From a virus (lineage: Duplodnaviria > Caudoviricetes), in IMG/VR virus record IMGVR_UViG_3300027749_000034: a stretch of DNA of 64,000 nt; one strand, given 5' to 3'. Of the stretch, positions 7,281 to 47,569 are shown in pieces. The translations under genes were made by a program, and so were the position numbers. Positions within the stretch are counted from its first letter, which is position 1; each line of letters starts with the position of its first letter. The notes below the pieces were generated by a model. It searched no databases. It was not told the origin of the DNA and saw only the letters and a program-made list of their open reading frames with translations.

Positions 7281-7287
7281 TGTCAAT

Positions 7288-7362
7288 GGGCCAGTAGCTT
7301 AATGGTAAAGCAACCGACTCATAATCGGTCGAGTCTTGGTTCAATTCCAAGCTGGCCCACCA
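7288..7362 (+). tRNA. tRNA-Ile2/Met(CAT)
   Basis: CTCATAA loop, GGGCC acceptor resembling Ile2, ACCA. Confidence 0.85.
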
Positions 7363-7368
7363 GTTTAT

Positions 7369-7443
7369 GCCCTGTTAGTTCAACGGATAGAATTAGAGTC
7401 TTCGAAACTCAGGATGGTGGTTCGATTCCATCACAGGGCGCCA
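7369..7443 (+). tRNA. tRNA-Arg(TCG)
   Basis: CTTCGAA loop, GCCA end. Confidence 0.88.
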
Positions 7444-7446
7444 AGT

Positions 7447-7646
7447 TTTGTTAGAGTGTCAGCAAGAGAAAGACTCGCTAGAAGGCTTCTTCGAAGGGCC
7501 GACTAATGTTAAAGAAGGACGGGTTCAAGTCCCGTAAACGCAGTGGAGCACCTTTGTCCTGTATCCCAAGTGACTTACCGAATCCCGCTCGAGCTTGTTA
7601 ATTCGGGTGAATGGTGCTTATAATGTGGTAGCACTACTTTAACAAA
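7447..7646 (+). ncRNA. unclassified 200-nt multi-branched RNA with T-arm
   Basis: 12-bp end-to-end stem, ACGGG-TTCAAGT-CCCGT T-arm, GAGCACC/GGTGCTT and further helices; sits between two tRNAs. Confidence 0.65.
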
Positions 7647-7654
7647 TTCAACAT

Positions 7655-7732
7655 GTACAGATGCCCGAGAGGCCCAAGGGAACTGATTGCAAACCAGTAA
7701 AGCCGTCGGTTCAAATCCGACTCTGTACTCCA
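7655..7732 (+). tRNA. tRNA-Cys(GCA)
   Basis: TTGCAAA loop, U73 discriminator, CCA. Confidence 0.9.
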
Positions 7733-7733
7733 A

Positions 7734-7808
7734 GGTAATGTAGCATAATGGTAGTGCGCCTGCTTCATACGCAGTCCAGTGCTAGTTCGACTCTAGCCAT
7801 TACCACCA
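7734..7808 (+). tRNA. tRNA-Met(CAT)
   Basis: TTCATAC loop, GGTAATG/CATTACC acceptor, ACCA. Confidence 0.88.
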
Positions 7809-7828
7809 ATTTTATAGGAGAGCCTGTT

Positions 7829-7966
7829 ATGGCCAGTGTCAAGAAAGGAACGATGACTCGTTCACCACAGTGGTGGAAACACCTTAAAGAATGGAAGCGT
7901 GTGTTCTGGAAAGCAGAACGACAAGCTCACAAAAAAGCGGGTATAGCTCAGTTGGTAGAGCAGTAG
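7829..7966 (+). CDS. 45-aa basic hypothetical protein ending inside tRNA-Lys
   Basis: GGAG SD; MASVKKGTMTRSPQWWKHL...; stop TAG lies within the tRNA. Confidence 0.6.
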   Translation: MASVKKGTMTRSPQWWKHLKEWKRVFWKAERQAHKKAGIAQLVEQ

Positions 7967-8012
7967 ACTTTTAATCTATTGGTCGTGGGTTCGAATCCCT
8001 CTGCCCGCACCA
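7937..8012 (+). tRNA. tRNA-Lys(TTT)
   Basis: Canonical cloverleaf, CTTTTAA loop, ACCA. Confidence 0.95.
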
Positions 8013-8025
8013 ATAAATAGTTGTA

Positions 8026-8370
8026 ATGAAAATTCAGCAAGACAGCACCGGACTTTATATTGAAACAGATGAAGTAGTCTGTCGTCCAGTTGAATCAAGT
8101 CAATTCAAATCAGATGAAGAGGTTCGGCTGGCACTTGATGCTGAAATAGCCACGGTCAGTGATGCCAATGATCGCGGTGCAAATGCCTTTGAAGAACAGT
8201 GGCAAGCAGTATACAAATCTCAGCCGGCTAGAGTTACGTCAGCGCCGGTAACTCATCCACCCATGTATTATGTAGAACACACAGGTTGGTATACTGCAAT
8301 CATAATCCTACTGGGCGTCACTGGGTTTGACCTTGGTCTTCTTGTTGGCACCATCTGGGCCAGGCTTTAA
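8026..8370 (+). CDS. hypothetical protein with C-terminal TM
   Basis: ORF; TAAATA-N6-ATG. Confidence 0.65.
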   Translation: MKIQQDSTGLYIETDEVVCRPVESSQFKSDEEVRLALDAEIATVSDANDRGANAFEEQWQAVYKSQPARVTSAPVTHPPMYYVEHTGWYTAIIILLGVTGFDLGLLVGTIWARL

Positions 8371-8501
8371 TTCCAACGGTTGAAACTGCAACTTGGCTTT
8401 GGCCAGAAGAGCATCTGGTTTAAAGTCTGCAGGTAAACACCAGGTGGCGCTGGGCAACAATTTAGATTTAACACTCATACAGTATTTAAGATCATTTAGG
8501 T

Positions 8502-8574
8502 GTGACCTTAGTGTTAGCGGTCAGCACCTCGGATTGTGATTCCGATAGGATGGGTTCAAATCCCATAGGTCACC
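8502..8574 (+). tRNA. tRNA-His(GTG), atypical (no G-1, no CCA, extended helix)
   Basis: TTGTGAT loop, C73, followed by CCT. Confidence 0.8.
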
Positions 8575-8591
8575 CCTAAACGATCTTTATT

Positions 8592-8667
8592 GCCAAGATA
8601 GCTCATCTGGTAGAGCACCTGTTTGAAGCACAGGGTGTGGTTGGTTCGAGTCCAACTCTTGGTACCA
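8592..8667 (+). tRNA. tRNA-Phe(GAA)
   Basis: TTGAAGC loop, ACCA. Confidence 0.9.
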
Positions 8668-8676
8668 AGTTTCTGT

Positions 8677-8750
8677 TCGGGAATGGTGTAATGGTAACAC
8701 AACACACTTTGACTGTGTCGTTCTAGGTTCGAGTCCTAGTTCCCGTGCCA
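8677..8750 (+). tRNA. tRNA-Gln(TTG)
   Basis: CTTTGAC loop, 1:72 mismatch, GCCA. Confidence 0.9.
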
Positions 8751-8769
8751 AATTTATAAGTAAGTTTAT

Positions 8770-8846
8770 AGCCTCATAGCTCAGTTGGTTAGAGCATTGT
8801 CTTGATAAGGCAAGGGTCCCCTGTTCGAGTCAGGGTGAGGCTACCA
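8770..8846 (+). tRNA. tRNA-Ile(GAT)
   Basis: CTGATAA-type loop (TTGATAA), ACCA. Confidence 0.9.
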
Positions 8847-8853
8847 GGATATT

Positions 8854-8994
8854 ATGAAAAAATTATTGTCAATCTGCGTACTTGCAACAGTTGCCGCATG
8901 CGGTTCAATGCCCAAGACTTGCTCTGTGCCTGGTGAGCAAGGTTGTACAAAGATACCGGCAATAATGATTCCAATTTTCAGCAAACAGTTTTAA
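8854..8994 (+). CDS. 46-aa putative lipoprotein
   Basis: MKKLLSICVLATVAA-C-GS lipobox-type signal. Confidence 0.6.
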   Translation: MKKLLSICVLATVAACGSMPKTCSVPGEQGCTKIPAIMIPIFSKQF

Positions 8995-9068
8995 GGGTCA
9001 TTAGTATAATGGCAGTACTGCGGTCTCCAAAACCGTTAGTGGGAGTTCGAGTCTCTCATGGCCCGCCA
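8995..9068 (+). tRNA. tRNA-Trp(CCA)
   Basis: CTCCAAA loop, G73, CCA. Confidence 0.92.
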
Positions 9069-9089
9069 ATTACACCTAATAGGTAAATC

Positions 9090-10061
9090 ATGTCAGTTAT
9101 TTTATTTTCGCATCCACGCAGTGGAAGCAGTCACTATACCGCAATGTTGCATTGGCATAATCAGCACAAGTATAAAAACCAAAGCATATACCTTTTTGAA
9201 TTTTTTACAATACATTGCACAGATACATTTGGGCAAGCCGGCGATATACTTTACAACCTTGAGTTATATGGTAAACCTATTCAAGTCTGTGAGTTAGTTG
9301 ATGCAGTATGGAATCGTCAGTGGTTGTATTGGCAAATTGAATCCAATCAGGACCCTGCTGACTTGTTGCCAATGATGCTAAAAAACAAAACTGTAATTTT
9401 TAAAAATTTTCAAGAAGTCCAGCAGTGGTATACAGCAGAATGTTTAAAGAGGTTGAGCTGGCTTAAATTTTTAACCAACAGCAAAATTCATTATGTTGTG
9501 AAACATTTTTTTCTCAGCCAAGAACTCAACATTGATGCTGAGCTGATAGAGTTTGCCAAGTCAGCTCAGCAGGCCAAACTGTATTATAGGCAGGACTTTT
9601 ATCAAACTTTATTGAGTCATCTTATTAAGACTTGTTATTATGATATACCTGGTGCACAACAGAGTCTAACAAATCGTGGACAGGATGCACACAATATACA
9701 AAATAAAATGTCTCCACTACAACCAATGTCATTGTCATTGGAAAAAGATCAACTGTTGAAGTGGATTGATCCTTTTGTATTATTTTTAAATTTTGTCAAA
9801 AACAACAAATTTGATGCGGTAGACATATTGTTGTATGAAGACTTTTTAGCAAAAAAATCAATTCAAATTGACGGGCAAGAAATAAAGTTAGAAATAATTG
9901 ATGCTAAATTCATGCGGACCAAAGAGTTTCCAATGAATTATGCTGTGAGTAAAGATCAATATTTTATCAACAGTGAATTGATTAAGAGCGTGGTCTATGA
10001 AAAAATTGTTGACCAGCACCTGCTAGAAACAATGCAAATGCTAGGTATTCGATTGTTGTAA
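9090..10061 (+). CDS. sulfotransferase-like P-loop protein
   Basis: SHPRSGSS (5'-PSB-like), YRQDFYQTLLS (R-x7-S), LLYEDF. Confidence 0.55.
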   Translation: MSVILFSHPRSGSSHYTAMLHWHNQHKYKNQSIYLFEFFTIHCTDTFGQAGDILYNLELYGKPIQVCELVDAVWNRQWLYWQIESNQDPADLLPMMLKNKTVIFKNFQEVQQWYTAECLKRLSWLKFLTNSKIHYVVKHFFLSQELNIDAELIEFAKSAQQAKLYYRQDFYQTLLSHLIKTCYYDIPGAQQSLTNRGQDAHNIQNKMSPLQPMSLSLEKDQLLKWIDPFVLFLNFVKNNKFDAVDILLYEDFLAKKSIQIDGQEIKLEIIDAKFMRTKEFPMNYAVSKDQYFINSELIKSVVYEKIVDQHLLETMQMLGIRLL

Positions 10062-10075
10062 TTGATCAAACACAT

Positions 10076-10150
10076 ACCACTATAGTTCAATGGATAGAAT
10101 CGGGTCCTCCTAAGACTTGGATACAGGTTCGATTCCTGTTGGTGGGACCA
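10076..10150 (+). tRNA. tRNA-Arg(CCT)
   Basis: CTCCTAA loop, ACCA. Confidence 0.85.
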
Positions 10151-10158
10151 AAGTCAAT

Positions 10159-10235
10159 ACCCCGGTGGCGCAATTGGTAGACGCACCTCTCTCAAAAGGA
10201 GGGTGTTGAGAGTTCGAATCTCTCCCGGGGTACCA
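10159..10235 (+). tRNA. tRNA-Leu(CAA), short variable loop
   Basis: Leu-type D-arm (GGTAGACGC), CTCAAAA loop, 5-nt variable region, ACCA. Confidence 0.8.
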
Positions 10236-10245
10236 TTATAGTTTG

Positions 10246-10821
10246 TTATATAAAAATCTTAGATGCCAATAATTCATACGGCATCAGTTTATTTGTTGCG
10301 TCAGTCACTGTGAAAGAGACTGTGTATCGAGTTTCTTCCGTGGTTGTTACATTGTGTGGAATTCCAGTTTGTACAATGTTGTATCCAACAAGATGTTTGC
10401 TGTACAGCAAATTTACCTGATCTGCCGTAAAGCTTGCATAATTGTTTGAATAGTTATTTTTACGAGATATCTTTGTTACTTTTGGTGTGTACCAATTAAG
10501 CACTCCGCCACTGGAGTTGGAAATGTAATTGATCTTGGCCATATTTCCTGGCATCATGTAATCTGCATCAGCGCCATCGGTATGAATCATTGAGGTAAAA
10601 TTAGTTGGGTAGTAAAAAAGCTCGCAACCACGAACCAGCAAGCCCCTTCCTGCCAAGAAGCTGATCACATTGTGGTCAATGTACTTGGAAACTGTAGAAT
10701 CTTTTGAATTAAAAATAGTAGACCTATTGTAAACACCTTTGGCACTAATTAATTTCAACAGGCGTAATCCAGATACAGATAACGGACCATAAGATAAGCT
10801 GAAGTTTTTATACAATTCCAT
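10246..10821 (-). CDS. cupin/2OG-Fe(II) oxygenase-like protein
   Basis: IHTDG...IPHNV; start ATG 10821 preceded by TAAATA-N4. Confidence 0.55.
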   Translation of the reverse strand: MELYKNFSLSYGPLSVSGLRLLKLISAKGVYNRSTIFNSKDSTVSKYIDHNVISFLAGRGLLVRGCELFYYPTNFTSMIHTDGADADYMMPGNMAKINYISNSSGGVLNWYTPKVTKISRKNNYSNNYASFTADQVNLLYSKHLVGYNIVQTGIPHNVTTTEETRYTVSFTVTDATNKLMPYELLASKIFI

Positions 10822-10843
10822 GCGATATTTATTCAACAAGTCA

Positions 10844-10873
10844 TTGACAACAGTAGGTTAAATAGTTTATAAT
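10844..10873 (+). promoter_or_regulatory. sigma70 promoter for the second tRNA block
   Basis: TTGACA-N18-TATAAT. Confidence 0.7.
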
Positions 10874-10892
10874 AAATTTTACAGAGTAAATT

Positions 10893-10982
10893 GGAGCGGT
10901 CCTATAATGGTATTAGAGCAGATTGCTAATCTGTCGCTCGGCGTAATCCGGGTTCTGAGTTCGAGTCTCAGTCGCTCCGCCA
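10893..10982 (+). tRNA. tRNA-Ser(GCT)
   Basis: TTGCTAA loop, long variable arm, GCCA. Confidence 0.92.
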
Positions 10983-11001
10983 AACACAACGAAAGCACAG
11001 T

Positions 11002-11166
11002 ATGAAGCCAGGTAAAACATTTCGATTAAGCAAAACAACCAAGCGAATGCTATGTAGCATTGTTGATACAACCAAGCGTAATGCTTGGAAGGCCGCAATG
11101 ATTCAAGCAGAGTTGGCCGCAGGTGTAGTTGTCAAGAGAGAGCCAAAAGAAGGACAGCGTAAGTAA
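11002..11166 (+). CDS. 54-aa basic hypothetical protein
   Basis: MKPGKTFRLSKTTKRM...; fills the gap between tRNAs. Confidence 0.65.
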   Translation: MKPGKTFRLSKTTKRMLCSIVDTTKRNAWKAAMIQAELAAGVVVKREPKEGQRK

Positions 11167-11175
11167 AGTTTTTTT

Positions 11176-11259
11176 GCCCCGGTGGTGTAATGGTAGCCAC
11201 GCTGGTCTTAGAAGCCAGTGCCGAAAGGCGTGTCGGTTCGAGTCCGACCTGGGGCACCA
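11176..11259 (+). tRNA. tRNA-Leu(TAG)
   Basis: CTTAGAA loop, GCC-GAAA-GGC variable arm, ACCA. Confidence 0.93.
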
Positions 11260-11276
11260 TAATTTAAAGGTCAAAT

Positions 11277-11498
11277 ATGCCAACAGTCTATACTGAAGTC
11301 GAAGTCGATGTAAGTCTAAGTGATTTTGATACCGAAGATCTAATTGAAGAATTAGAATCTCGAGGTAACTTGCCAATTGAGGGCAATACCGACGCTAAAG
11401 AGCTAGTCGAGTCAATGTATCTAAAGCGTAGAAATGGCAAAGACTACCAGCAAGAGTTGGACCAACTGATTTATCGAGTCCTTGGTAAGATCGTTTAA
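11277..11498 (+). CDS. hypothetical protein
   Basis: ORF with AAGGT SD. Confidence 0.7.
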   Translation: MPTVYTEVEVDVSLSDFDTEDLIEELESRGNLPIEGNTDAKELVESMYLKRRNGKDYQQELDQLIYRVLGKIV

Positions 11499-11508
11499 AT
11501 TGCATCAT

Positions 11509-11583
11509 CTGGCCATAGTACAATGGATAGTACATAGAGCTTCTACCTCTAGAATGTGGGTTCGATTCCTGCTGGCCGGGCCA
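11509..11583 (+). tRNA. tRNA-Arg(TCT)
   Basis: CTTCTAC loop, GCCA. Confidence 0.88.
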
Positions 11584-12432
11584 CTTATTGTTGTAATGTT
11601 TGCAATGCCTGCACAGGCAAAAAAGAAAACAACTGCACCACCTAGCGAACCAGCTCGTGCAGTTTTAGTTTTTAATGCAACAACAGATACACTGGTGCAT
11701 GGTCTAAACATACACGACATCATGCCAATTGCCAGTGTGACAAAATTAATGACTGCATTTGTAGTCTTAGAAAGTCGAGCAGACTTGGATGAAAGATTGC
11801 CAGTTGTACCACAATCAGTGGAAAGTAGCCGTGTTCTCAAGCTTGGTATGATAATTACTCGACGAGAACTACTACACCTTGCACTTGTCTCCAGTGATAA
11901 CCTAGCGGCAAAATTGCTTGCTGTATACCATCCATACGGTTATGATTCATTTGTTCGAGAAATGAATGCCACGGCACAACGCCTGGGAATGAAGAATACA
12001 TCCTATATTGAACCAACTGGACTCCTGTTAAACACCAGTACCGCATGGGATTTACACCTGCTGAATCGTCATCTATCTAAATATACAATTTTCAAAGAAG
12101 CCGCAATGAGCGCAACAGCCAGTGCAGAAGCCCGGACTCGCCGGGGCATATGGCAAAAGTTAGTGATTCGTAACACCAATGCATTTGCAGGAAAATATGA
12201 TATCAAGATTGCCAAAACTGGATTTACTAATCCAGCTGGCTGGTGCATTGACATGCAAGTGCATCATAAGGACCAGGATGTAGATTTTATAGTACTAGGC
12301 TCACCAAGCAAAAAAATACGCAACGAGCTGGTCAGTAAACGATTAAACAATTACATGACTTTCATGACATCTCGATCTATTGTTATTAAAATTGAAGACA
12401 TTGATGATGCAAGTGGATTTATTAATTGGTAA
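11554..12432 (+). CDS. peptidase S11 D-Ala-D-Ala carboxy/endopeptidase (PBP7/PbpG-like)
   Basis: SVTK (SxxK), SDN (SxN), KTG motifs; signal peptide if start is ATG 11554. Confidence 0.85.
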   Translation: MWVRFLLAGPLIVVMFAMPAQAKKKTTAPPSEPARAVLVFNATTDTLVHGLNIHDIMPIASVTKLMTAFVVLESRADLDERLPVVPQSVESSRVLKLGMIITRRELLHLALVSSDNLAAKLLAVYHPYGYDSFVREMNATAQRLGMKNTSYIEPTGLLLNTSTAWDLHLLNRHLSKYTIFKEAAMSATASAEARTRRGIWQKLVIRNTNAFAGKYDIKIAKTGFTNPAGWCIDMQVHHKDQDVDFIVLGSPSKKIRNELVSKRLNNYMTFMTSRSIVIKIEDIDDASGFINW

Positions 12433-16862: not shown

Positions 16863-18020
16863 ATGTTTAAAAAATCAGCAATATGCCTGGTTCTTTGCTG
16901 TTCAGCAGTTGCAGTTTATTCAGCACCCAGTGAGATCACCCCCAGTCAAGCCACAGGTGGCATGGCATTCCGGTATCCAAACATTCGTTTGCCGGCGGCA
17001 GATCAACCTAATCTATTACCTAATAAAGTATTGACCGAGTCGGACCGCAATATTATTAATCAAGCAGAATCCATGTTTGATCGTAATGCATCATTGTCTA
17101 TTGTAATGATAGAAAAGGGACAGCTGGTGTTTGAAAAGTATCGACAACCAGCAAGTCCACGCTCGTTGAACTTTTCATGGTCCATGAGTAAGAGTTTAAC
17201 TGCATACACCGTTGGCGCCATGTCATGCGAAGGTAAAATACCAGATCTCAATAAACCAGCGCAGACATATTCTCCGGACCTCAAAGACACAGTATATGGC
17301 GAAGCAACAGTAAAGAATTTGCTAACAATGAGTAGTGGTGTTCGTAGAGCTATATATGCAGGAAATTTAATTAAGAAACAACCAGGTACATGTGATCCTG
17401 CTAGAGATTGTGACGGCTGGCTGATGCAACGAGCCGGTATTATGACTGGTTTAGAAATGATCAAGCACGATGCAGATCGTGACACCTCTTGGGGCAGACC
17501 AGTGGCCAGTGGATCCAGGTTTGCTTACAATGGAACTGATACATTAAGCTTGGCAAATGTTGCAGATCATACAGGTGGATTTGTTGATAATTTTAACAAG
17601 CACATATGGTCGCAGATTGGCAGTCAAGGACCAGGACATTGGCTGGTTGACAAAGACAATAAAGCAGTGGCACAGGCAGGGTTTAGTGCAACCAGCAAAG
17701 ACTGGGGACGTCTGGCCATGTGGTCTATCAAACAGCTAAAGTCTGAAGATAAATGCATCAGTAGTTTTATGAAAGAAGCTACCACAGAACAATTGCCAAA
17801 CTCAACTGGCGAAGCAGGCCGAGCGTTTTCTGGATATGGATATCAGACCTGGATCATGCCCGAACGCTGGGGACAAAAAGCCAGTTATTGGTGGGTGGGT
17901 TTTGGCGGACAACGAGTTGGTGTTGATCCAGTGAGCGAAAAGATTATTGTGGTGACCAGTAGTCGAGAAGATTACATGGATGAAATCTACGGGTTGTTTC
18001 AAAAATGGCAAAGGCAATAA
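16863..18020 (+). CDS. secreted serine hydrolase, beta-lactamase/AmpC (S12) family
   Basis: Signal peptide; SWSMSKS (SxxK), FAYNG (YxN), WWVGFGGQ. Confidence 0.8.
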   Translation: MFKKSAICLVLCCSAVAVYSAPSEITPSQATGGMAFRYPNIRLPAADQPNLLPNKVLTESDRNIINQAESMFDRNASLSIVMIEKGQLVFEKYRQPASPRSLNFSWSMSKSLTAYTVGAMSCEGKIPDLNKPAQTYSPDLKDTVYGEATVKNLLTMSSGVRRAIYAGNLIKKQPGTCDPARDCDGWLMQRAGIMTGLEMIKHDADRDTSWGRPVASGSRFAYNGTDTLSLANVADHTGGFVDNFNKHIWSQIGSQGPGHWLVDKDNKAVAQAGFSATSKDWGRLAMWSIKQLKSEDKCISSFMKEATTEQLPNSTGEAGRAFSGYGYQTWIMPERWGQKASYWWVGFGGQRVGVDPVSEKIIVVTSSREDYMDEIYGLFQKWQRQ

Positions 18021-22849: not shown

Positions 22850-23440
22850 ATGAGTTTAGTGCCAATCGTAGTAGAGAAGACCGGAGCAGGTGAGCGCAGT
22901 TACGACATTTACAGTCGTTTACTCAAAGAGCGAATTGTATTGCTTGAAGGCGAAGTACATGACCAAATGGCCAATCTGATTGTTGCCCAGTTGCTGTTCT
23001 TAGAAGCAGACAACCCAGAAAAAGAAATCAATCTTTTTATTAACAGCCCTGGTGGAAGCATTACAGCAGGCATGGCAATCTACGACACAATGCAATATAT
23101 CAAAAGCCCTGTAAGCACCATTGTCATGGGTCAAGCATGTAGCATGGGCAGTTTCTTAGCGCAGTCTGGTCAAGCAGGTCGACGGTTTGTATTGCCCAAT
23201 GCAAGACACATGATCCACCAACCTTCAGGTGGCACTCGTGGCATGGTAAGTGATATTGAAATCAGTTACAATGAAATTGTATTTTGGAAAAAACGACTAA
23301 CAGAGTTATATGTCAAGCATAACTCAGCTGGTAAAACATATCCACAGTTTGAAAAAGACATGGATCGAGATACATTCATGAGCGCCGAAGAAGCTGTTGC
23401 ATACGGCTTGGCCGACGGTATCATGACAAAACGCCCATGA
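22850..23440 (+). CDS. clpP: Clp protease proteolytic subunit
   Basis: [24 protein letters not shown] (Ser), HQP (His). Confidence 0.97.
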
Positions 23441-23592
23441 TACTTGAAGTTATAGTATACGGATTCTTCACTGCATTTGGCTGGTGGGGCGCAAATCACT
23501 ATGTGATCGAACCCTATTTTCCTGAACCTGTTGCCAAGGTAAAGAAAGCAGAAGAAAAGAAAGAAACTACTGTTTCAAAAGAGAATCAGTAA
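23437..23592 (+). CDS. 51-aa membrane-anchored protein
   Basis: ATGA overlap with clpP; N-terminal hydrophobic segment. Confidence 0.6.
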
Positions 23593-24208
23593 ATTCCAGC
23601 AAGAGTTGATGGTGAGTACCCCCGTGGTACTTGCCCGTCATCCAACTGTATCCATCATACCAGAACTGTTCGCTTTCTGGATGACAACCAATTAGACCAA
23701 TACGGTTTTGTATTATCGCCATAGCATCATTATTAGCATATTTGGCAATGGTGTCGTGATATCCTGCACCAACTAAAGCACAGCCATCATACCAGAACAT
23801 GTTCATAGGTTTTCCTAACCAGTCAATTGAAATGTTTTTTGCATGTGGCCTGCGTGTATCAGTTCCAGGACGAGTTATGTATTGTACTGCATCAATGTCT
23901 TTTAAGATATTAAAATAGTGTGAGCCTGCCCAGTAGGCACCCATACAAATTCCCAAATACCGCCCGCCATCCTTAACAAATTGCCGAACTCGTTCACCGT
24001 TGTATTTGAACAAGTTCTCAAAGCTGTCGGCATCACCTATTCCACCAGGCACAGCAATTATATCAACATTGTTGAAAAATACATCTTCTACTGCATTTTT
24101 TCCAAACACTTTAAAATTGTAATATTGCCCAAGTGCATTCATTATACCATTTCCACTTTGCACTGAACATTTTGGATCAGCTAAAAATAGTGCTACAGTG
24201 GGCTTCAT
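23567..24208 (-). CDS. BPL_N / class I glutamine amidotransferase-like protein
   Basis: VPGG, YLGICMGAY, HPE; TATAAATA-N4-ATG. Confidence 0.8.
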   Translation of the reverse strand: MKPTVALFLADPKCSVQSGNGIMNALGQYYNFKVFGKNAVEDVFFNNVDIIAVPGGIGDADSFENLFKYNGERVRQFVKDGGRYLGICMGAYWAGSHYFNILKDIDAVQYITRPGTDTRRPHAKNISIDWLGKPMNMFWYDGCALVGAGYHDTIAKYANNDAMAIIQNRIGLIGCHPESEQFWYDGYSWMTGKYHGGTHHQLLLEFTDSLLKQ

Positions 24209-24251
24209 GATCTATTTATATAGATAAATACTTGTCAAGGAGGACTCAACC

Positions 24252-24410
24252 ATGAAACAGAAAAAGCTACTGGCTAAACTGTACAGGGCTTGCGTCGACC
24301 ATGATACAGAAACCATTGCTGAACTCCGTCAAAAAGAGTTTGCAAAGATACTGAAACACAAGGCCGAAGGTAAGTCATTTACAACAAAATGGACTTTGGT
24401 TAGGATTTAG
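24252..24410 (+). CDS. 52-aa hypothetical protein
   Basis: AAGGAGG SD after TAAATA box. Confidence 0.7.
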
Positions 24411-24460
24411 TGTAACAAAACAGTAACACAAAAATCCACAATTGGGCGATAAGTAATGGT

Positions 24461-25240
24461 ATGACAGCCAAAACTTATCGCTCAATTTTTGTTTCCGATG
24501 TACATTTAGGCACTAGAGATTGTAAAGCTGGACAGCTGAACAATTTCCTTAAACACAACAGTTGTGATACATTATATCTAGTAGGCGATATAATTGATGC
24601 ATGGAAGATTCAACAAAACAAATGGCGTTGGAAACAAAGCCACACCAATGTTGTTCGTAGAGTATTGGGACATGCCAAGCGTGGTACTCGAGTTGTATTC
24701 ATTGCCGGCAATCATGATGAGTTTTTGAGACCCATGATACCATATGGATTTAGTTTTGGCCTGGTGGAAATACACAATCAAATAGAACACATAGGTGCTG
24801 ATGGTCGACACTATCTTGTTACACATGGCGACCTGTTTGACGGTATCACAAGATTGGCACCGTGGATAGCATTTTTAGGAGACAAGGCATATGATATCAT
24901 TTTATCGCTTAATAGCAAATACAATTGGCTACGTCATCGTATGGGTTTTGGGTACTTTAGTCTTAGTCAGTATCTCAAAGCAAGAGTAAAGAAAGCAGTG
25001 GACTTTATATTCCACTTTGAAAAAAATCTAGCCACCTATTGTAAAAAGCGTGGATATGATGGAGTCATATGTGGACACATACACCACGCGGAAATAAAAG
25101 AAATAGATGGCATCATATATATGAACGACGGTGACTGGGTAGAATCGTGTACTGCACTTGTAGAACATCATGACGGTCGTTGGGAAATAATTACATGGAC
25201 CAAAAGCAATGACAAAGACAATACTGATAATAACAGATAA
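24461..25240 (+). CDS. PlcP/LpxH2-like metallophosphoesterase (putative phospholipase C)
   Basis: SDVHLG, GDIID, GNHDE, HGD, GHIH; adjacent GT4. Confidence 0.8.
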   Translation: MTAKTYRSIFVSDVHLGTRDCKAGQLNNFLKHNSCDTLYLVGDIIDAWKIQQNKWRWKQSHTNVVRRVLGHAKRGTRVVFIAGNHDEFLRPMIPYGFSFGLVEIHNQIEHIGADGRHYLVTHGDLFDGITRLAPWIAFLGDKAYDIILSLNSKYNWLRHRMGFGYFSLSQYLKARVKKAVDFIFHFEKNLATYCKKRGYDGVICGHIHHAEIKEIDGIIYMNDGDWVESCTALVEHHDGRWEIITWTKSNDKDNTDNNR

Positions 25241-26216
25241 TTTACCGGAGCAAATAAATGGCGTGGTTACGACCTACACAAATATTGAGGCACATGCGAT
25301 TTTGGATGGTTATAACTTTGTGGTGCTTCATCCCGGGTGGTTCAGCTACATTGATTGCCCTGGCTACAACGAAGTCAAGATTGCCTATCCGCGCAATCTG
25401 GGCAAGAAGATTGAGGAGATCAATCCGGATTATATCCATATCGCCACAGAAGGTCCTCTTGGTCTGTGGGCTAGAGCATATCTTTCACTGGCTAATATTC
25501 GCCACAATACCGCTTATCACACTAAGTTTCCTGAAGGGCTCAGAAAGCTATTTGGAGTTCCTGAATGGATTACTTGGCGCTTTGTTAGATGGTTTCATAA
25601 ACATAGCGGCAAAGTTTTAACAACTACTGATTCAATGGTTGCTGAACTAAAAGCACACGGATTCGGTGGCGAAGTATTGCCCTGGACTCGCGGTGTTGAC
25701 CGTGCGATCTTTACTCCTGATCTGAGAGAAGACTTTCCTAGTAGATACTTGCTGTGCGTAAGTCGTGTCAGCAAGGAAAAGAATCTAGAAGCGTTTTTAG
25801 AATTAGACTATCCTGGTTATCAAAAAATCATGGTAGGAGATGGCCCCATGCTGGAAACATATCGCCGGCAATATCCAGAAGTTGTGTTCACAGGATTTAA
25901 GACAGGAGTTGATCTTGCTCGTTACTATGCCAATGCTGAAGTGTTTGTATTCCCCAGTAAATGGGAAACATTTGGACTGGTAATGATTGAAGCCATGGCC
26001 TGTGGCACTCCTGTAGCGGCGTATAACTGCCAAGGACCTGCTGATGTGATTGATCAAGGTGTTACCGGATTCATGGTTGAAGAAAGCGAAGGTCTGGCGG
26101 CGGCAGTTGACAAGTGTTTGAAAATTAACAGAGCCGATGTGCATAGAGTAAGTCAAAGATGGACATGGAAACGAGCCTGGGAAATATTCAGAGACAACCT
26201 GGTAGAGAAGGTTTAA
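25209..26216 (+). CDS. GT4 glycosyltransferase, Agt-like glycolipid synthase
   Basis: ITD...QINGVV, HIATEGPLG, ETFGLVMIE (Ex7E). Confidence 0.8.
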   Translation: MTKTILIITDNLPEQINGVVTTYTNIEAHAILDGYNFVVLHPGWFSYIDCPGYNEVKIAYPRNLGKKIEEINPDYIHIATEGPLGLWARAYLSLANIRHNTAYHTKFPEGLRKLFGVPEWITWRFVRWFHKHSGKVLTTTDSMVAELKAHGFGGEVLPWTRGVDRAIFTPDLREDFPSRYLLCVSRVSKEKNLEAFLELDYPGYQKIMVGDGPMLETYRRQYPEVVFTGFKTGVDLARYYANAEVFVFPSKWETFGLVMIEAMACGTPVAAYNCQGPADVIDQGVTGFMVEESEGLAAAVDKCLKINRADVHRVSQRWTWKRAWEIFRDNLVEKV

Positions 26217-27295
26217 TGAATTGGTCAGCAGTTAAACATCTGCATTTGGAAATCAGTTCGCAATGCAATGCGGCCTGCCCGTTGTGTGCTAGATATCCAA
26301 CTTCCAGCTTGTACGAACATCCTAGTATTAGTATGGATCAAGTTTGGACCATTGAACAGGTTAGAGCTCGATTACCAACAGCAGACCTGGTCAATATTGA
26401 AAAGTTTCTCATCAACGGCACCGTGGGCGATTTCATTACAAATCGAGATGCACTGGAAATTATACAGCACTTCAGTTCAGCAAGTCCAACAGCACAGATT
26501 GAAATCAACACCAATGGTTCAGCCAGGACTCCAGAGTTTTGGAAAAGTCTGGCCCTGATAAAAAATGTTAGAATATCATTTGCACTGGATGGTCTGGAAG
26601 ATACACATCACTTGTATAGACGACAGACCAATTGGAAGTTTATCATTGACAATGCCAAGACATTTATCAATGCCGGCGGAACAGCTGATTGGATCATGAC
26701 CAGGTTCGCCCACAACGATCATCAAGTTGATGAGTGTGCAAGCCTAGCAAAGCAACTGGGTTTTGCAAAATTCTATGCCAGACACAGTGATAGATATTTT
26801 GCTCCAGCCAGGGACAAGAATGGAAATACCACACATGAGTTGCTACCAGCACCAACTGCTCCATATACTTCAAGCACTAGAACTTTGGCCGAATTGCAAT
26901 CAAAAGAAGTAAGATATCGCAATGGAACATTTCGAGCTGTACAAATGCACAACAGTACGCCATTGCCCAGCTTGGACAATTGTGAAAGCCTGCGAACCAG
27001 GAGCATTTATGTTGGTGCAGATTGGTCTGTTGCGCCATGTTGTTTTATTGGAGTCCTATCTTTTACTCGAGAAACAGATCATCGCTATGCCAGTTTTGCA
27101 ACTGCACTAGCCGAAGCCGGACTGACTCTACAGGATTTGATTGCAAGCACAACAGTGAGTGCCATTGTAGATCGAGGGTTTGATTGGATTTACAATCGTA
27201 TTACCACAGACCGAGCATTAATGAGCTGTTTTCATTCCTGCCATCCAGACAAATCAAATTATAGAATAAGTCAAGCTACCAAATTGGCAAAATAA
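26216..27295 (+). CDS. radical SAM protein with C-terminal SPASM/twitch-like Cys
   Basis: CNAACPLC; C-terminal C...PCC...CFHSC. Confidence 0.88.
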   Translation: MNWSAVKHLHLEISSQCNAACPLCARYPTSSLYEHPSISMDQVWTIEQVRARLPTADLVNIEKFLINGTVGDFITNRDALEIIQHFSSASPTAQIEINTNGSARTPEFWKSLALIKNVRISFALDGLEDTHHLYRRQTNWKFIIDNAKTFINAGGTADWIMTRFAHNDHQVDECASLAKQLGFAKFYARHSDRYFAPARDKNGNTTHELLPAPTAPYTSSTRTLAELQSKEVRYRNGTFRAVQMHNSTPLPSLDNCESLRTRSIYVGADWSVAPCCFIGVLSFTRETDHRYASFATALAEAGLTLQDLIASTTVSAIVDRGFDWIYNRITTDRALMSCFHSCHPDKSNYRISQATKLAK

Positions 27296-27386: not shown

Positions 27387-27971
27387 ATGGCACTTATTGA
27401 CAGCGTAATGAATTTAATCAATAAAACACCAAAGGACCCAGATGCACCAAAGCCTCCAGTTGGATCAAGATCAGAGCGCGAAGCAAAAATCAAAGACAAA
27501 GCTGGTATGGTTATCAATGTATTTGCATTGTTACTTGCAGTCAATGCATGGTACGGCGGCACCCTTGGTTCAACAGTACTAAACAATACAATTAAAGCAA
27601 ATGACACTTGGGCTTTTTATCAAGCCAAGTCCATGAAACAAACCATGGCTGAATATGCTCGTGATGATGCACTACGAGCAAAGGATGTTAAACGGGCAGA
27701 CGAGCTGAAGGCTAGAATTGATCGTTATGAAAACGAACCCAAAGATGGCAAGCGAGATTTAATGATCAAAGCAAAGGCACTTGAAGCAGAACGAGATGAG
27801 GCCAAAAAGCGTAGTCCGTGGATTGGCTATGCAAGTACTGCATACCAATTATCAATTGTTGTACTGTCAGCAAGTATATTGGCAGTCAGCATTCCGTTGT
27901 TCTGGAGCAGTTTTATTGTTGCAGGCATTGGCATGTTATTGAGTAGTCAGGGCGTTTTACTCTGGTTCTAA
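27387..27971 (+). CDS. DUF4337-like membrane protein
   Basis: ANDTWAFYQAKSMK motif, TM segments. Confidence 0.7.
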   Translation: MALIDSVMNLINKTPKDPDAPKPPVGSRSEREAKIKDKAGMVINVFALLLAVNAWYGGTLGSTVLNNTIKANDTWAFYQAKSMKQTMAEYARDDALRAKDVKRADELKARIDRYENEPKDGKRDLMIKAKALEAERDEAKKRSPWIGYASTAYQLSIVVLSASILAVSIPLFWSSFIVAGIGMLLSSQGVLLWF

Positions 27972-28079: not shown

Positions 28080-28616
28080 ATGAATAAGTGGCTCACCGTA
28101 TTAGGAATTTCAGCTCTGTTACTCTTTATGGTTCGTATAGAATCACGATTGGACATTATTCAAAGTGAAGTTGAGGACCTAAATCGAATCGTAAAAACCT
28201 CAACCACAGTCAAGTACACCCCTAAAGATCTTGAATGCCTGGCCCGCAACATCTATTATGAGGCCGGAGTAGAGGACCAAGTTGGCAAGTATGCAGTGGG
28301 CCATGTCACACTGAACCGGCTCAGCACAGGCTACTGGGGCAAAGATATTTGTTCTGTTGTTTATGCCCGGGGGCAATTTTCTTGGACCTTAAAAAAGAAA
28401 CTACCCAAACCCAATCCAGCACTATATGCTGAAGCGGAAAGCGTTGCATGGGATGTCATACATGGCTATAAAGTTGCCAGTCTTGACAAGAGTTTATTTT
28501 ACCATGCTGACTATATTAAAGATCCGCATTGGGCAGTACAAGAGCACAAAGTGACACAAATTGGGCGTCATATTTTCTACACCAAAGCGCGAAACAGCTG
28601 GCTAGCTATGTTGTAA
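28080..28616 (+). CDS. cell wall hydrolase, SleB/Hydrolase_2 family
   Basis: CLARNIYYEA, VTLNR, GQFSW, FYHADY. Confidence 0.9.
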   Translation: MNKWLTVLGISALLLFMVRIESRLDIIQSEVEDLNRIVKTSTTVKYTPKDLECLARNIYYEAGVEDQVGKYAVGHVTLNRLSTGYWGKDICSVVYARGQFSWTLKKKLPKPNPALYAEAESVAWDVIHGYKVASLDKSLFYHADYIKDPHWAVQEHKVTQIGRHIFYTKARNSWLAML

Positions 28617-39434: not shown

Positions 39435-39440
39435 GTGTTA

Positions 39441-41099
39441 ATGAATTTCTTTGACAAAATTTCCAAGCAAGTAAAAGAGCCGCCTAAGAGAAAAGACTTT
39501 GGTTATACTGAGTATTTTCAAAAGGCAGAGAACATGCGAGACAACCTGGACAAAATTAGTCCAACAATGTGTCTGGCCAAGTGGTTACAAGTCAGTATCA
39601 ATCTGGCCAACGGTACCACACAAAGTTGTTATCATCCGCCTCCGCATGCTATTCCACTACTAGAGCTCAAAGAAAATCCCAGCGCATTGCATAACACCAA
39701 GTTCAAAAAACAAGAACGAGAACTAATGTTGACTGGCAAGCGGCCAGAAGGTTGTAGTTACTGTTGGCGTGTGGAAGATGCACCTGGTGGTGGCCCACAA
39801 GGACACCTTAGTGATAGACATTACAAGTCCAGCGAAGACTGGGCCGCCCCTGACTTTCGCAATGTAGTTCTAAAGGAGGCCGATTTCGATATTGTTCCAC
39901 GATATGTCGAAGTGAATTTTAATCAGGCTTGTAATTTCAAATGCATGTACTGTAGTCCTCATATCAGTACAGCATGGGAAGAAGAAATCAAACAGCATGG
40001 ACCTTACAACTTTGACTTGCCGGGCAAAAACAAGGTTGATCATAACAATCTACGCAATTTAAAAGTTTCAGGATACATGCCGCTAGAAGTTGCTGTCAAA
40101 GATAATCCTTATGTGACAGCATTTTGGAAATGGTGGCCAGACATTTATCGTACACTACGAGTATTTCGTATGACTGGCGGCGAACCATTGATGGATCGGA
40201 ATACCTTTAAGGTGTTGGACTATGTGAATGAGAATCCACATGGACAATTAGAACTAAGCATTACCAGCAACATGTGTCCGCCGGATCAAAAGTTATTTGA
40301 CAAGTTTATTAGCAAAGTACAGGCCATTGAAGTCATACGCACTTATGAAGATACTGAAAACTTCAACAAGTTCAGTGGCAATCATTGGTATGTGGACAAG
40401 GGCTTTAAACATTTCTGGTTATACATCAGCTTGGACGGAGTAGGTCAGCAAGCAGAATATATGCGTACTGGTTTAGACTATGCAAGATTAATGTCCAACA
40501 CTAGAAAGTTCTTAGCTGAAACTAAGTACACCACTGTCAGTTTCATCAACACCTTTAACATACTGTCAATTCCAAGTTTAAAAAGTTGGTTGCAAATGAT
40601 ATTAGATTTGCGAGTAGAATTCGGCGGCCGGAATCAAACTGAGTTTGAAATTGCTCCAGAACCAACAGAGCACGAAAAAGAACATGGCATTGAACACAAG
40701 AAGTATTTCCAAAAGAAGTTCCAAAGAATATTTTTAGACATACCATTGCTAAAATACCCCAACTGGTTTGATCCACAAAATGCAACGCCAACCTTGATTG
40801 CAACCATTGAAGATTGCTTGGAGTTTATGCGTAGCAATGCACAGCAAGAAGATTACAGAGAAACATTTGAAGGTTTCAAGCCACATGAGATATTGAAACT
40901 TGAAAGAAATCTAGCTATAATTAAAGAAGGCAAAGACCCTGCCGCTGTTCAAACGAATAGATTACAATTTTATCAATACATAAATGAGTATGATAGACGC
41001 AGAGATACTGCCTTCTTAGAAGTTTTTCCGGAGATGAACTCCTACTACAATGAATGTAAGTTGTTACAAATGAGAATAGACGATGCCAAAGAAACATAA
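39441..41099 (+). CDS. radical SAM protein, N-terminal twitch-like domain (array 1)
   Basis: CLAKW...SCYH...CSYCW; CNFKCMYC; GGEP. Confidence 0.9.
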   Translation: MNFFDKISKQVKEPPKRKDFGYTEYFQKAENMRDNLDKISPTMCLAKWLQVSINLANGTTQSCYHPPPHAIPLLELKENPSALHNTKFKKQERELMLTGKRPEGCSYCWRVEDAPGGGPQGHLSDRHYKSSEDWAAPDFRNVVLKEADFDIVPRYVEVNFNQACNFKCMYCSPHISTAWEEEIKQHGPYNFDLPGKNKVDHNNLRNLKVSGYMPLEVAVKDNPYVTAFWKWWPDIYRTLRVFRMTGGEPLMDRNTFKVLDYVNENPHGQLELSITSNMCPPDQKLFDKFISKVQAIEVIRTYEDTENFNKFSGNHWYVDKGFKHFWLYISLDGVGQQAEYMRTGLDYARLMSNTRKFLAETKYTTVSFINTFNILSIPSLKSWLQMILDLRVEFGGRNQTEFEIAPEPTEHEKEHGIEHKKYFQKKFQRIFLDIPLLKYPNWFDPQNATPTLIATIEDCLEFMRSNAQQEDYRETFEGFKPHEILKLERNLAIIKEGKDPAAVQTNRLQFYQYINEYDRRRDTAFLEVFPEMNSYYNECKLLQMRIDDAKET

Positions 41100-42621
41100 T
41101 GAATCCTTTGCCGAATACAAAATTCGGATGGTTGACAGCACTAGCGACAGCTTCTGTGCCGCCAAATGGCTCAATGCCACAATTTGGTTGGGCAATGGAC
41201 AAACAACCAGTTGCCACCATCCACTTGGACATCAAATTGATGCAAGTGAACTCGACGCCAATCCCACTGCCATTCACAATACACCGCACAAGAAACTCAT
41301 GCGTAAGATGATGCAGGAAGGTACTCGTCCACAAGAATGTGAGTACTGCTGGAAGATTGAAGACTTGGGTCGCAACAGCATATCGGATCGTGTGTACAAA
41401 ACTGCGGTGTTCTCGGACAAAGACATCATTGCGGCCGCTACCACACATTGGCAACACGATACAATGTTAAAGACATTGGAAATTTCGTTTGACCGTACTT
41501 GCAATTTTTCTTGCAGTTATTGCAACCCCAGCTTTAGTACCAGTTGGGTCAAAGACATTAAAAAGTTTGGCCCATATCGTAACATTGATGGTGATGCCCG
41601 TAGCCACTTTATCAATGCGGCTGACCATGCTATTCCAATTGCAGACGAAACCAATCCTTACATCAAAGCGTTTTGGCGCTGGTGGGATGAAGGGCTAGCC
41701 GACAACTTAGAAGAGATTCGAATCACTGGTGGCGAGCCATTGATGGCTCCGGGCGTTTGGAAACTGATGCAATGGTTCAAAGACAATCAAGAACGAGCAA
41801 CCAAACGAGCCGACGGCGGTGTATTGCGTTATGCCATCAACAGTAACCTGGTGCCCAAAGATGACTTGATGGACAAGTTTATTGAGTTGAGTAAGTTTGT
41901 TCCGCACCTGGAAGTTTATACCAGCAATGAAAGTGTGGGCGCACACAGCGAATACATTCGTGATGGTATGGTCTACAGCAAATGGAAAGACAATTTGCAT
42001 CGCTTGCACACTGAAGGCAATATTAAAAAGACACACATGATGATGACCATCAATAGTTTGTGTCTTGCCAGTATCACCGAATTCATGGATGAGATACTGG
42101 AATTCAAGCGTGAGCATAAAACTGTATATCCCACAATGAGTTTGAATATTCTGCGTTTTCCCAGCTTCCAGAGTTGCGCCATGTTGCCAACCAGCATTAG
42201 ACAAAAGTATCGCGACAAGTTACAAGCATGGTTGGATAATATAATTGCCCAGGATGAACGAGTACAAATGGGAACTGGCCCACATGGTTGGCCTATCATG
42301 ACTCCAATTGAGCGTGAACAAACACAACGACTGATTGACTATCTTGATGTCATCAAGACACCGCACAAGAATGTCAAGGATATGGGTCAACAGCACTTGG
42401 ACTTTAAAAACTTCTACACACAATATGATGTGCGTAGAGGCAAGGACTTCCGTGCAACATTTCCACAGGAGTTTGTTGATTGGTATGACAGCATTGATAC
42501 ACCAACTCCGTCAAGAGAAGAAATCCTAAGCGGAACATACAGCGATGAAACTGGACATATTCCAGACCATCCGCCCGAAGACCCCAGCAAGGAAGAATTT
42601 TTCAATCCGGACTTACAATGA
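41083..42621 (+). CDS. radical SAM protein (array 2)
   Basis: CAAKW...SCHH...CEYCW; CNFSCSYC; GGEP. Confidence 0.9.
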   Translation: MPKKHNESFAEYKIRMVDSTSDSFCAAKWLNATIWLGNGQTTSCHHPLGHQIDASELDANPTAIHNTPHKKLMRKMMQEGTRPQECEYCWKIEDLGRNSISDRVYKTAVFSDKDIIAAATTHWQHDTMLKTLEISFDRTCNFSCSYCNPSFSTSWVKDIKKFGPYRNIDGDARSHFINAADHAIPIADETNPYIKAFWRWWDEGLADNLEEIRITGGEPLMAPGVWKLMQWFKDNQERATKRADGGVLRYAINSNLVPKDDLMDKFIELSKFVPHLEVYTSNESVGAHSEYIRDGMVYSKWKDNLHRLHTEGNIKKTHMMMTINSLCLASITEFMDEILEFKREHKTVYPTMSLNILRFPSFQSCAMLPTSIRQKYRDKLQAWLDNIIAQDERVQMGTGPHGWPIMTPIEREQTQRLIDYLDVIKTPHKNVKDMGQQHLDFKNFYTQYDVRRGKDFRATFPQEFVDWYDSIDTPTPSREEILSGTYSDETGHIPDHPPEDPSKEEFFNPDLQ

Positions 42622-44003
42622 AACGAGTAATACCAATTTGGGAACCAGGTAAGCCAGCCAAGGACAATCCTAACCCTTATTTCTGTATGGCACCTTGGCG
42701 CCACACTTACATCAGTCCGCAAAGTGAGCGCAGACTCTGTTGTGCCAGTAGAGAAGAGCACAGCTTCCAGAAGCAATACATTGACAGTAGCAATGACAAG
42801 GCCTACGGAGCAGTGACTGAAAGCAAGACAGCATTGTCAGATTACCAGCCAGTCAGTTTAAAGGAACACTGGAACAGCGACTACATGAAAGATATTCGGG
42901 TCAAGCTGATGGCTGGTGAAGAAATTCCACAATGTGATGTGTGCAATCATAATTTACTAATGGAAGGCAGTTACAAGGGTTGGTTTACAGGTAATCTATT
43001 TCGCGAACAGATTCAACAGGCGTTTGATGCAACAGATGAAACAGGCCATACCACAATGGAACCTGTCAGCTTTGACTACAGGTTCAGTAACCTATGCAAT
43101 TTCAAATGCCGCATGTGTGGAGAACAATTGAGCAGTAGTTGGGAAGTTGAAAAGAAACAGCATGACCTATGGACACCCAAAGACCAACCCTTTATGGTTC
43201 CTGAAATCAAGTCTGCCATGCAAGACTTCCAAGCTCGTGTGGTAGAACCTGAATTTCGAGATGCAGTACAGCGTGGTATCATTGAAGAAATGTATTGGGT
43301 AGGTGGCGAGCCATTGATGTATGATATACATTGGTGGACGCTTGAAGAAATGCTTCGCAATGGCAGTGCAAAAGATTGTTACATGCGCTACAACAGCAAT
43401 CTAAGTCGTGTGGTGTTTGGTAAAAAGAATCTGTTTGATTACTTGCCGCAATTCAAAGACTGGATGATGTGTGCCAGCATAGATGGCACAGGTGAAATTG
43501 TAGAATATATTCGTACAGGCATCAAGTGGAACGAGTGGCTGGCCAACTTTAAAGAAGGGGTGAGCTTGCCTGGCGGTCGAGAGCGCATGAAACTGGATTT
43601 GACCATCACAGCACCGGGCATGTTCTCTCTCAAAGATCTATTTGAACTAAGCTTGGAATTAGATGTTGAAATCATCACAAAGATTACATTTGCGTTCCAT
43701 GCAGATATCATGTGGACACCAATGAGCTGGCCCAGACATATTTTAAATCGTCACATTGAGGAACTTGTTGCTTACATGCGACCTTTAGCAGGACCAAAGC
43801 AATGGAGTGTAATCTCTACCTTAGAGTCCATGCGTGATAGTAGACAAACACATGAAGAAGCCTTTCCAGAAACTTATAAGTCAGCGGCCCGCAACGGAAT
43901 GAATTGGGTCAAGCGGTTGGAAACAATCCGCAAAGATAAAACAACCATGGCCACAATCTATTCTGCAGATCCAGAACTGCTGGCTTGGTGGGAGAGTCTA
44001 TGA
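42618..44003 (+). CDS. radical SAM protein (array 3)
   Basis: CMAPW...LCC...CDVC; CNFKCRMC; GGEP. Confidence 0.9.
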   Translation: MKRVIPIWEPGKPAKDNPNPYFCMAPWRHTYISPQSERRLCCASREEHSFQKQYIDSSNDKAYGAVTESKTALSDYQPVSLKEHWNSDYMKDIRVKLMAGEEIPQCDVCNHNLLMEGSYKGWFTGNLFREQIQQAFDATDETGHTTMEPVSFDYRFSNLCNFKCRMCGEQLSSSWEVEKKQHDLWTPKDQPFMVPEIKSAMQDFQARVVEPEFRDAVQRGIIEEMYWVGGEPLMYDIHWWTLEEMLRNGSAKDCYMRYNSNLSRVVFGKKNLFDYLPQFKDWMMCASIDGTGEIVEYIRTGIKWNEWLANFKEGVSLPGGRERMKLDLTITAPGMFSLKDLFELSLELDVEIITKITFAFHADIMWTPMSWPRHILNRHIEELVAYMRPLAGPKQWSVISTLESMRDSRQTHEEAFPETYKSAARNGMNWVKRLETIRKDKTTMATIYSADPELLAWWESL

Positions 44004-47560: not shown

Positions 47561-47569
47561 CCTGTTGAA

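Follow-up and report, generated by a model that had tools for sequence, protein, structure and literature searches.

A predicted membrane lipid renovation module of the PlcP-Agt type in a large uncultured lake phage

In several bacteria a metallophosphoesterase, PlcP, and a glycosyltransferase of family GT4 are encoded in one operon, as in S. meliloti (SMc00171), Phaeobacter sp. MED193 (MED193_17359 and Agt), P. aeruginosa (PA3219/PA3218) and SAR11 HTCC7211 (with GTcp), and these are phosphate-starvation genes (PMC4796936, PMC8528852). Here, we describe an overlapping gene pair in a stretch of DNA of 64,000 nucleotides (nt), one strand of the IMG/VR virus record IMGVR_UViG_3300027749_000034 (Duplodnaviria; Caudoviricetes), the whole of which is called the window below. 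With moderate confidence, and based on its sequence, we read the pair as a copy of the PlcP-Agt lipid renovation module of bacteria, carried by a phage and working by the mechanism proposed below. It consists of a PlcP-like metallophosphoesterase with the LpxH fold (positions 24461-25240, + strand; 259 amino acids, aa), which was assigned by Pfam, tree and motifs, and an Agt/GTcp-like GT4 glycosyltransferase (25209-26216, +; 335 aa), which was assigned by Pfam, residues and linkage. An earlier note on this DNA had pointed to an overlapping pair of a metallophosphoesterase with the motif GNHD and a GT4 with TD...Q.NGV, and both open reading frames (ORFs), both motifs and an overlap of 32 nt were found.

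Compared with the bacterial operon, both families and their order, phosphoesterase and then GT4, are kept, at 44-59% identity to the bacterial copies for the phosphoesterase and about 37-47% for the GT4. A PhoB-box-like site lies upstream, and the residues of GTcp that bind diacylglycerol (DAG) and uridine diphosphate (UDP) are also kept. However, the phage module differs in being carried by a phage, in pairing its catalytic His with a Glu, preceded by Trp, instead of the Asp of the family, and in the 32-nt overlap. Most phage relatives have a small GT2/GT21-like enzyme instead of the GT4, and the sublineage of the window adds a coupled radical SAM gene.

LpxH (UDP-2,3-diacylglucosamine diphosphatase; PDB 5K8K, 5B49, 6PH9) shares the fold class, in which a helical cap is inserted into a metallophosphoesterase core, and has the same seven metal ligands, and it acts on lipid substrates, as is predicted for the phage enzyme. 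The phage enzyme is, however, only about 20-26% identical to LpxH, scores under the LpxH family cut-offs, has His in place of Arg and falls in a separate, fully supported clade. Among phages, cyanophages reportedly carry auxiliary genes for phosphate stress (pstS, phoA) under the control of host PhoB, as Zeng and Chisholm are said to have described in 2012. The module resembles these in its Pho-box-like site, in being likely switched on under phosphate starvation of the host, and in that phage relatives place pstS with the same motif beside it. Whereas the cyanophage genes import or scavenge external phosphate, the phage module would free phosphorus from the membrane. In the cultured Pelagibacter phage Mosig EXVC030M, the product of Mosig_00120 ('putative UDP-2,3-diacylglucosamine hydrolase') is PlcP-like at 48% identity and its gene adjoins that of a phosphate-binding transporter (pstS), as in some phage relatives, but there is no glycosyltransferase partner nearby, the host is a marine SAR11 and the phage lineage is another one.

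The phosphoesterase is calcineurin-like (Pfam PF00149, E 9e-11), and it very probably belongs to the PlcP-like family and not to LpxH. All seven metal ligands are present (D13, H15, D43, N84, H122, H206, H208) and are invariant across 45 PlcP-like sequences. In E. coli LpxH the place of GNHD is taken by GNRD, as the earlier note had stated and the alignment showed; the His that stands for the Arg of LpxH, H85, is invariant across the 45 aligned relatives. Against the LpxH models the phosphoesterase reached 44 bits for NF003743 (cut-off 134) and 32 bits for TIGR01854 (cut-off 190); over 121 aa it shared 26% identity with E. coli LpxH, and it matched solved LpxH chains with an E of only about 1e-5. 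In a maximum-likelihood tree, three true LpxH proteins parted from the PlcP-like clade along a long branch with 100% support, and the phage phosphoesterases formed one clade (93%) nested within the cellular PlcP-like group. The nearest neighbours of the phage clade were a Competibacteraceae contig, metagenome-assembled genomes of Robiginitomaculum and Holophagaceae, two gammaproteobacterial genomes and the pelagiphage Mosig. The proposal that this enzyme is of the PlcP/LpxH2 type rather than LpxH is thus borne out by the tree split and the scores below the cut-offs, and no clustering with true LpxH was seen.

The distribution of the two families in cellular genomes points the same way. One Photobacterium genome encodes a true LpxH (344 bits) alongside a PlcP-like paralogue (37 bits), while two genomes of the alphaproteobacterium Sandarakinorhabdus have the PlcP-like paralogue only, with no LpxH-grade match. 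A homologue was found in 144 of 401 sampled alphaproteobacterial genomes, mainly as a single copy and at 44-57% identity for most, with E values that were mostly from 1e-66 to 1e-94 and weaker where the match was partial. These homologues were used here as a proxy for the published PlcP criterion of Sebastian et al., a BLASTP E < 1e-40 against the PlcP of MED193. Characterised PlcPs are 46-47% identical among themselves (PMC8528852).

The AlphaFold model of the phosphoesterase has a mean predicted local distance difference test (pLDDT) score of 81, with lower confidence in the inserted helical cap (region 128-196). The 25 PDB entries that match it best are all LpxH structures, which fits a lipid-handling enzyme with an LpxH-type helical cap, and we predict that it is a phospholipase C releasing DAG. 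Relatives are named 'UDP-2,3-diacylglucosamine pyrophosphatase LpxH' in the databases, and the genes of Mosig and S-SRM01 are named UDP-2,3-diacylglucosamine hydrolase or diphosphatase in GenBank. Virus surveys of Lake Baikal and of oligotrophic sea water put 'lpxH' (K03269) among the auxiliary genes of lipopolysaccharide (LPS) biosynthesis; as the surveys count the gene as an LPS gene, the re-reading alters the interpretation of viral gene catalogues. In the literature search no paper was found on a phage PlcP-Agt module or on a phage-encoded PlcP, in agreement with the remark of the earlier note that such a module is not commonly described in phages.

Two length forms of the phosphoesterase are common in the relatives, a tailed form of 287-315 aa (mostly 294-298) and a tail-less form of 253-265 aa. 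The tail is a hydrophilic C-terminal extension, which is missing from the window's form, and the cellular alignments all end by about residue 250. A separate idea, that the short C-terminus is a deletion fusing the phosphoesterase to a 204-aa ORF of the relative L044, was rejected. The common ending NTDNNR is the frame entering the GT4 start and is uninformative, because any upstream ORF in frame that runs into the GT4 start ends alike. The 204-aa ORF, of no known family, lies between phosphoesterase and glycosyltransferase in L044 (6910-7524) and also in L074 and L083, and is absent from the window.

The second gene of the pair belongs to GT4 by two Pfam matches (PF00534, E 3e-27; PF13439, E 6e-12), with the TD..P.Q.NGV motif at its N-terminus. 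Its model (pLDDT 92.6) has the standard GT-B fold, with BshA and MshA as the best fold matches. In each of five bacterial genomes, the GT4 neighbour of the plcP-like gene matched the phage GT4 best (199-254 bits), and the next GT4 reached at most 85 bits. In an exhaustive search of 1.84 billion cluster representatives, the nearest relatives were again the plcP-linked GT4 family, and nearly all of the nearest 150 representatives carry its motif. The GT4 had been called Agt-type before, and this stands, since bacteria place its nearest relatives beside plcP. By mutagenesis of GTcp from SAR11, the DAG-binding residues His104, Thr162, Arg163 and Trp320 and the UDP-binding residues Arg190, Lys195 and Glu264 were found to be required (PMC8231724). 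Their equivalents are all present in the window GT4 (H104, T160, R161 and W320 for DAG; R186, K191 and E261 for UDP) and are conserved in 30/30 phage copies. It is likely, judged by these residues and the linkage, that the enzyme acts on DAG as a diacylglycerol glycosyltransferase. The catalytic pair is His104-Glu253, and because Glu253 replaces the Asp of the family we class the enzyme as Agt-like rather than as an ordinary member of Agt/GTcp.

The pairing of the two genes is found both in bacteria and across the phage relatives. Most of the cellular loci fetched, about a dozen excepted, have a GT4 directly after the PlcP-like gene, these neighbours being 37-44% identical to the GT4 of the window, and no GT2 homologue was found beside the plcP-like genes in these loci. 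In two gammaproteobacterial genomes (L025:1327-2998 and L026:5847-7518), the place behind the PlcP-like gene is taken not by a glycosyltransferase but by two ORFs (275-301 aa) that look acyltransferase-like by eye.

In phages, the phosphoesterase was found on at least 589 IMG/VR contigs, the majority of them from lakes, and the matches in protein databases were dominated by phosphoesterase relatives at 83-95% identity. Among 64 distinct phage loci, the phosphoesterase is followed by a GT2 in 37 and by a GT4 in 23, and the remaining 4 end too early to judge; one or the other is therefore present in 60/60 loci with room for it. The GT2 partner also matches Pfam GT21, a family of processive diacylglycerol glycosyltransferases (PMC8231724). 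On a tree of the phosphoesterase DNA, the type of partner changed at least three times; the best tree has 10 such changes. With GT2 and GT4 alternating on a constant phosphoesterase, the phosphoesterase appears as the fixed part and the glycosyltransferase as an exchangeable cassette. Among GenBank phages, a homologue was found only in Mosig, S-SRM01 and MT836169 (an unverified 12-kb contig from a fecal sample), besides one very distant metagenomic match, and no glycosyltransferase partner was found near the homologue in these three. PHROGs gave only generic phosphoesterase and glycosyltransferase families for the pair. In the 359-kb relative L040 (7652-12885), genes for a superoxide dismutase, a LysM-GH19 protein and NifU come after the module, together with two Fe-S assembly genes.

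Regulators of the PhoB/OmpR type bind direct repeats with 11-bp phasing. In the window, a PhoB-box-like tandem repeat with this phasing, TGTAAC-N5-AGTAAC (24411-24427, +), was identified by its conservation in relatives; it starts directly after the stop of a small upstream ORF and 50 nt ahead of the ATG of the phosphoesterase. A candidate -10 element, CACAAT (24437-24442, +), which we infer, lies 9 nt past the repeat, and no third half-site was seen at the repeat by eye. The motif TGTMAY-N5-TGTMAY was scored over 12 positions in 61 distinct upstream regions of relatives and in shuffled regions. Forty of the 61 regions scored at least 11, compared with 0.45% of the shuffles, at 38-50 nt from the ATG (with one at 23 and one at 33); the window copy scored 11/12. 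The canonical Pho box is CTGTCATNNNNCTGTCAT (PMC8528852), and the copies in the relatives L090, L124 and L126 are close to it. When the same strict motif was sought before cellular plcP-like genes, only 2/59 scored at least 11, which makes these a weak positive control.

In 924 kb of related loci, 61 perfect copies of the motif were found where about 3 were expected, nearly all on the coding strand. They cluster in three spots. One is ahead of the phosphoesterase, another just past the glycosyltransferase, where the next gene encodes either a radical SAM enzyme or a 214-232-aa protein without a known family, and the third ahead of pstS-type genes. In three relatives a pstS-type phosphate-binding gene (PF12849, E 1e-31 to 1e-38) lies directly upstream of the phosphoesterase, with motif and gene at 4870-4897 and 4929-5924 in L092, at 4821 and 4945-5889 in L058 and at 175 and 243-1250 in L117; the motif in L092 is an overlapping double copy. 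In L044-L047 a spacer with a perfect copy (L044:8487, L047:7913) separates the GT4 from the radical SAM gene, which may share the regulon of the module. The protein of no known family is a conserved one of 148-232 aa in the relatives given here, with an N-terminus that is helical by eye and a perfect motif ahead of its gene (L066:4880-5524, L068, L088, L091, L093, L094, L126). It lies past the glycosyltransferase in six relatives and upstream of the phosphoesterase in L126, had no Pfam match in the two copies tested, and was not found in the window.

As the motif is conserved in the relatives and shared with pstS, and as pstS is also the neighbour of the Mosig gene, control of the module by phosphate starvation is likely. 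The link to phosphorus that the earlier note had drawn gains support in this way at the level of the sequence. By contrast, the 'late-type box' that it had placed ahead of the pair is not supported. The only + strand match, GATAAATA (24223-24230), which agrees with the T4 box TATAAATA at 7/8 positions, sits 22 nt before the small ORF and not before the phosphoesterase, and neither sequence is enriched in the window (TATAAATA 3 vs 3.3 expected and GATAAATA 1 vs 3.0 expected in window shuffles). Both genes have relatives, 90-99% alike, on contigs assembled from four freshwater metatranscriptome libraries. One contig in each of the runs X1, X2 and X4 bridges both genes, with a junction longer than that of the window.

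Taken together, the proposed mechanism would begin with the PlcP-type enzyme cleaving the phospho-head group off host glycerophospholipids, giving DAG and a soluble phosphoalcohol. The coupled Agt/GTcp-like GT4 would then move a sugar from a nucleotide sugar onto the DAG, so that the membrane would be refilled with a phosphorus-free glycolipid. Transcription would probably be driven by the phosphate-starvation regulator of the host, PhoB, through the upstream tandem repeat, and the phage would likely gain phosphorus with which to replicate its very large DNA genome in lakes poor in this element. We infer the substrates, the sugar added, the binding of PhoB and the benefit to the phage, and regard the full phosphorus-mining mechanism as moderately probable. 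By a rough estimate, a 350-kb genome takes up about 7e5 phosphorus atoms and the phospholipids of an E. coli-sized cell number about 2e7, which would make the membrane pool worth tens of phage genomes.

Several points count against this explanation. The window GT4 reads FPSKWETFG, with Trp252-Glu253 replacing Thr-Asp, and Trp-Glu is found in all 30 phage GT4s compared, whereas the catalytic acid is Asp in 44/44 cellular neighbours and in 139/142 of the nearest representatives with a readable motif (of 150). In GTcp, the catalytic pair is His104-Asp256, with the Asp within FPSxTDTFG, and changing this Asp to Glu removed >90% of activity; in other GT4 enzymes, MshA among them, the catalytic residue is, however, usually Glu (PMC8231724). 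We read the phage GT4 as active from its sequence, possibly with an altered donor sugar. What PlcP yields is a phosphoalcohol rather than free phosphate, and the pair has no linked phosphatase. The placement of the two proteins rests on genomic orthologues and not directly on SMc00171, MED193_17359, PA3219, Atu2297 or GTcp.

On the regulatory side, the motif is at chance level within the window alone (6 sites vs 5.45 expected). The window copy is among the weaker ones, as it matches CTGTCATNNNNCTGTCAT at only about 8/14 positions, or 10 if half-sites may end in C. No pstS was found when it was searched for within the window. The PhoB site of the host may differ from the consensus used. The RNA-library contigs may stem from carried-over DNA and indicate that relatives are present rather than where transcripts start or end or how abundant they are, and expression is therefore only a hint.

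There is a little less than an even chance, in our estimation, that a family of very large freshwater phages keeps a small phosphate-starvation island controlled by host PhoB, with PlcP in all members, pstS in some, a swappable diacylglycerol glycosyltransferase (GT4 or GT2/GT21-like) and further motif-bearing genes, namely those for the radical SAM enzyme and for the 214-232-aa protein. If so, infected cells would break down their own phospholipids for phage DNA synthesis, infection would shift the lipid make-up and phosphorus flow of lake bacterioplankton, and many 'viral lpxH' entries in surveys would belong to a lipid-renovation pathway. The known phosphorus-stress genes of phages (pstS, phoA, phoH) mostly serve uptake or external scavenging, and a viral route by which the membrane of the host itself gives up phosphorus would represent a new class of auxiliary metabolism. 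The phage-specific Trp-Glu and the repeated swaps between GT4 and GT2 are also a natural experiment on the donor and acceptor specificity of lipid glycosyltransferases.

An unlikely alternative, though the least improbable of the three considered, is that the genes serve another lipid or nucleotide-sugar pathway, in which the phosphoesterase acts on a different pyrophosphate- or phosphodiester-linked substrate and the GT4 and radical SAM protein build a glycoconjugate other than glycosyl-DAG. The departure of the catalytic acid from the GT4 family would fit this, as would the radical SAM gene, which is coupled to the GT4 stop (TAATG) in the window and has its own motif copy in L044-L047, and the large radical SAM array elsewhere in the window. 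However, the radical SAM neighbour is confined to the window's sublineage while phosphoesterase and glycosyltransferase are universal, the DAG-binding residues of GTcp are all kept, and Glu is normal in GT4 enzymes such as MshA.

Slightly less likely again is a re-decoration of the envelope, independent of phosphorus, in which an altered membrane or altered surface glycolipids would serve superinfection exclusion or escape from defence, in that other phages or lipid-sensing defences would cease to work. The earlier note had likewise offered evasion of lipid-dependent defences, or preparation for lysis, as conceivable purposes. The swapping of the glycosyltransferase partner is a pattern typical of surface-diversifying genes, and the GT4 has a minor overlapping match to Pfam GT4-conflict (32 bits). 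This is opposed by the constancy of the phosphoesterase, held at 83-95% identity while the glycosyltransferases vary, by the motif common to the module and to the phosphate-uptake gene pstS, and by the bacterial relatives being phosphate-starvation genes; PADLOC gave no meaningful matches. That the phosphoesterase is a true LpxH aiding the synthesis of lipid A (LPS) during infection is the reading of automatic annotation and of virus surveys, but it is very improbable, since the names and the fold matches that favour this are outweighed by the scores far under both cut-offs, the long and fully supported branch, the Photobacterium and Sandarakinorhabdus genomes and GNHD in place of GNRD.

The carrier of the predicted lipid renovation module is a large uncultured lake phage. 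The closest relatives of the window are IMG/VR viral contigs in which the gene order is kept, of about 345-360 kb at most apart from one of 524 kb, and PHROG matches in the window are strong for a DNA ligase, a nuclease and an endolysin; by these relatives and matches it is a phage lineage. A similarity search of the window DNA gave no match among GenBank phages.

The small upstream ORF (24252-24410, +; 52 aa) was recognised by tblastn in relatives, at 62-90% identity. It lies upstream of the phosphoesterase in many, but not all, of them, is absent from L047, and had no match in Pfam or NCBIfam. Downstream, the radical SAM protein is encoded at 26216-27295 (+); its frame opens at 26159, but homologues begin at the ATG at 26216, the A of which is shared with the GT4 stop (TAATG). 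With this junction and the 32-nt overlap, the phosphoesterase, GT4 and radical SAM genes are translationally coupled in the window phage.

Around the module lie genes for ClpP (22850-23440, +), a BPL_N/class I glutamine-amidotransferase-like protein (23567-24208, -), a DUF4337 protein (27387-27971, +) and a SleB-type cell wall hydrolase (28080-28616, +), and several genes of this set shift position around the module in relatives. The radical SAM array runs in tandem at 39435-54938 (+), with large ORFs at 39435, 41083, 45177, 47581, 48900 and 53772 that match PHROG families. Elsewhere in the window there are 16 transfer RNA genes in loose arrays (7189-11583, +), a phage-encoded D-Ala-D-Ala carboxypeptidase (Peptidase_S11, E 1e-38; 11482-12432, +), a phage-encoded protein of the beta-lactamase family (E 2e-20; 16863-18020, +) and a weak dual-specificity or tyrosine phosphatase-like ORF (E 5e-6; 609-1127, +).

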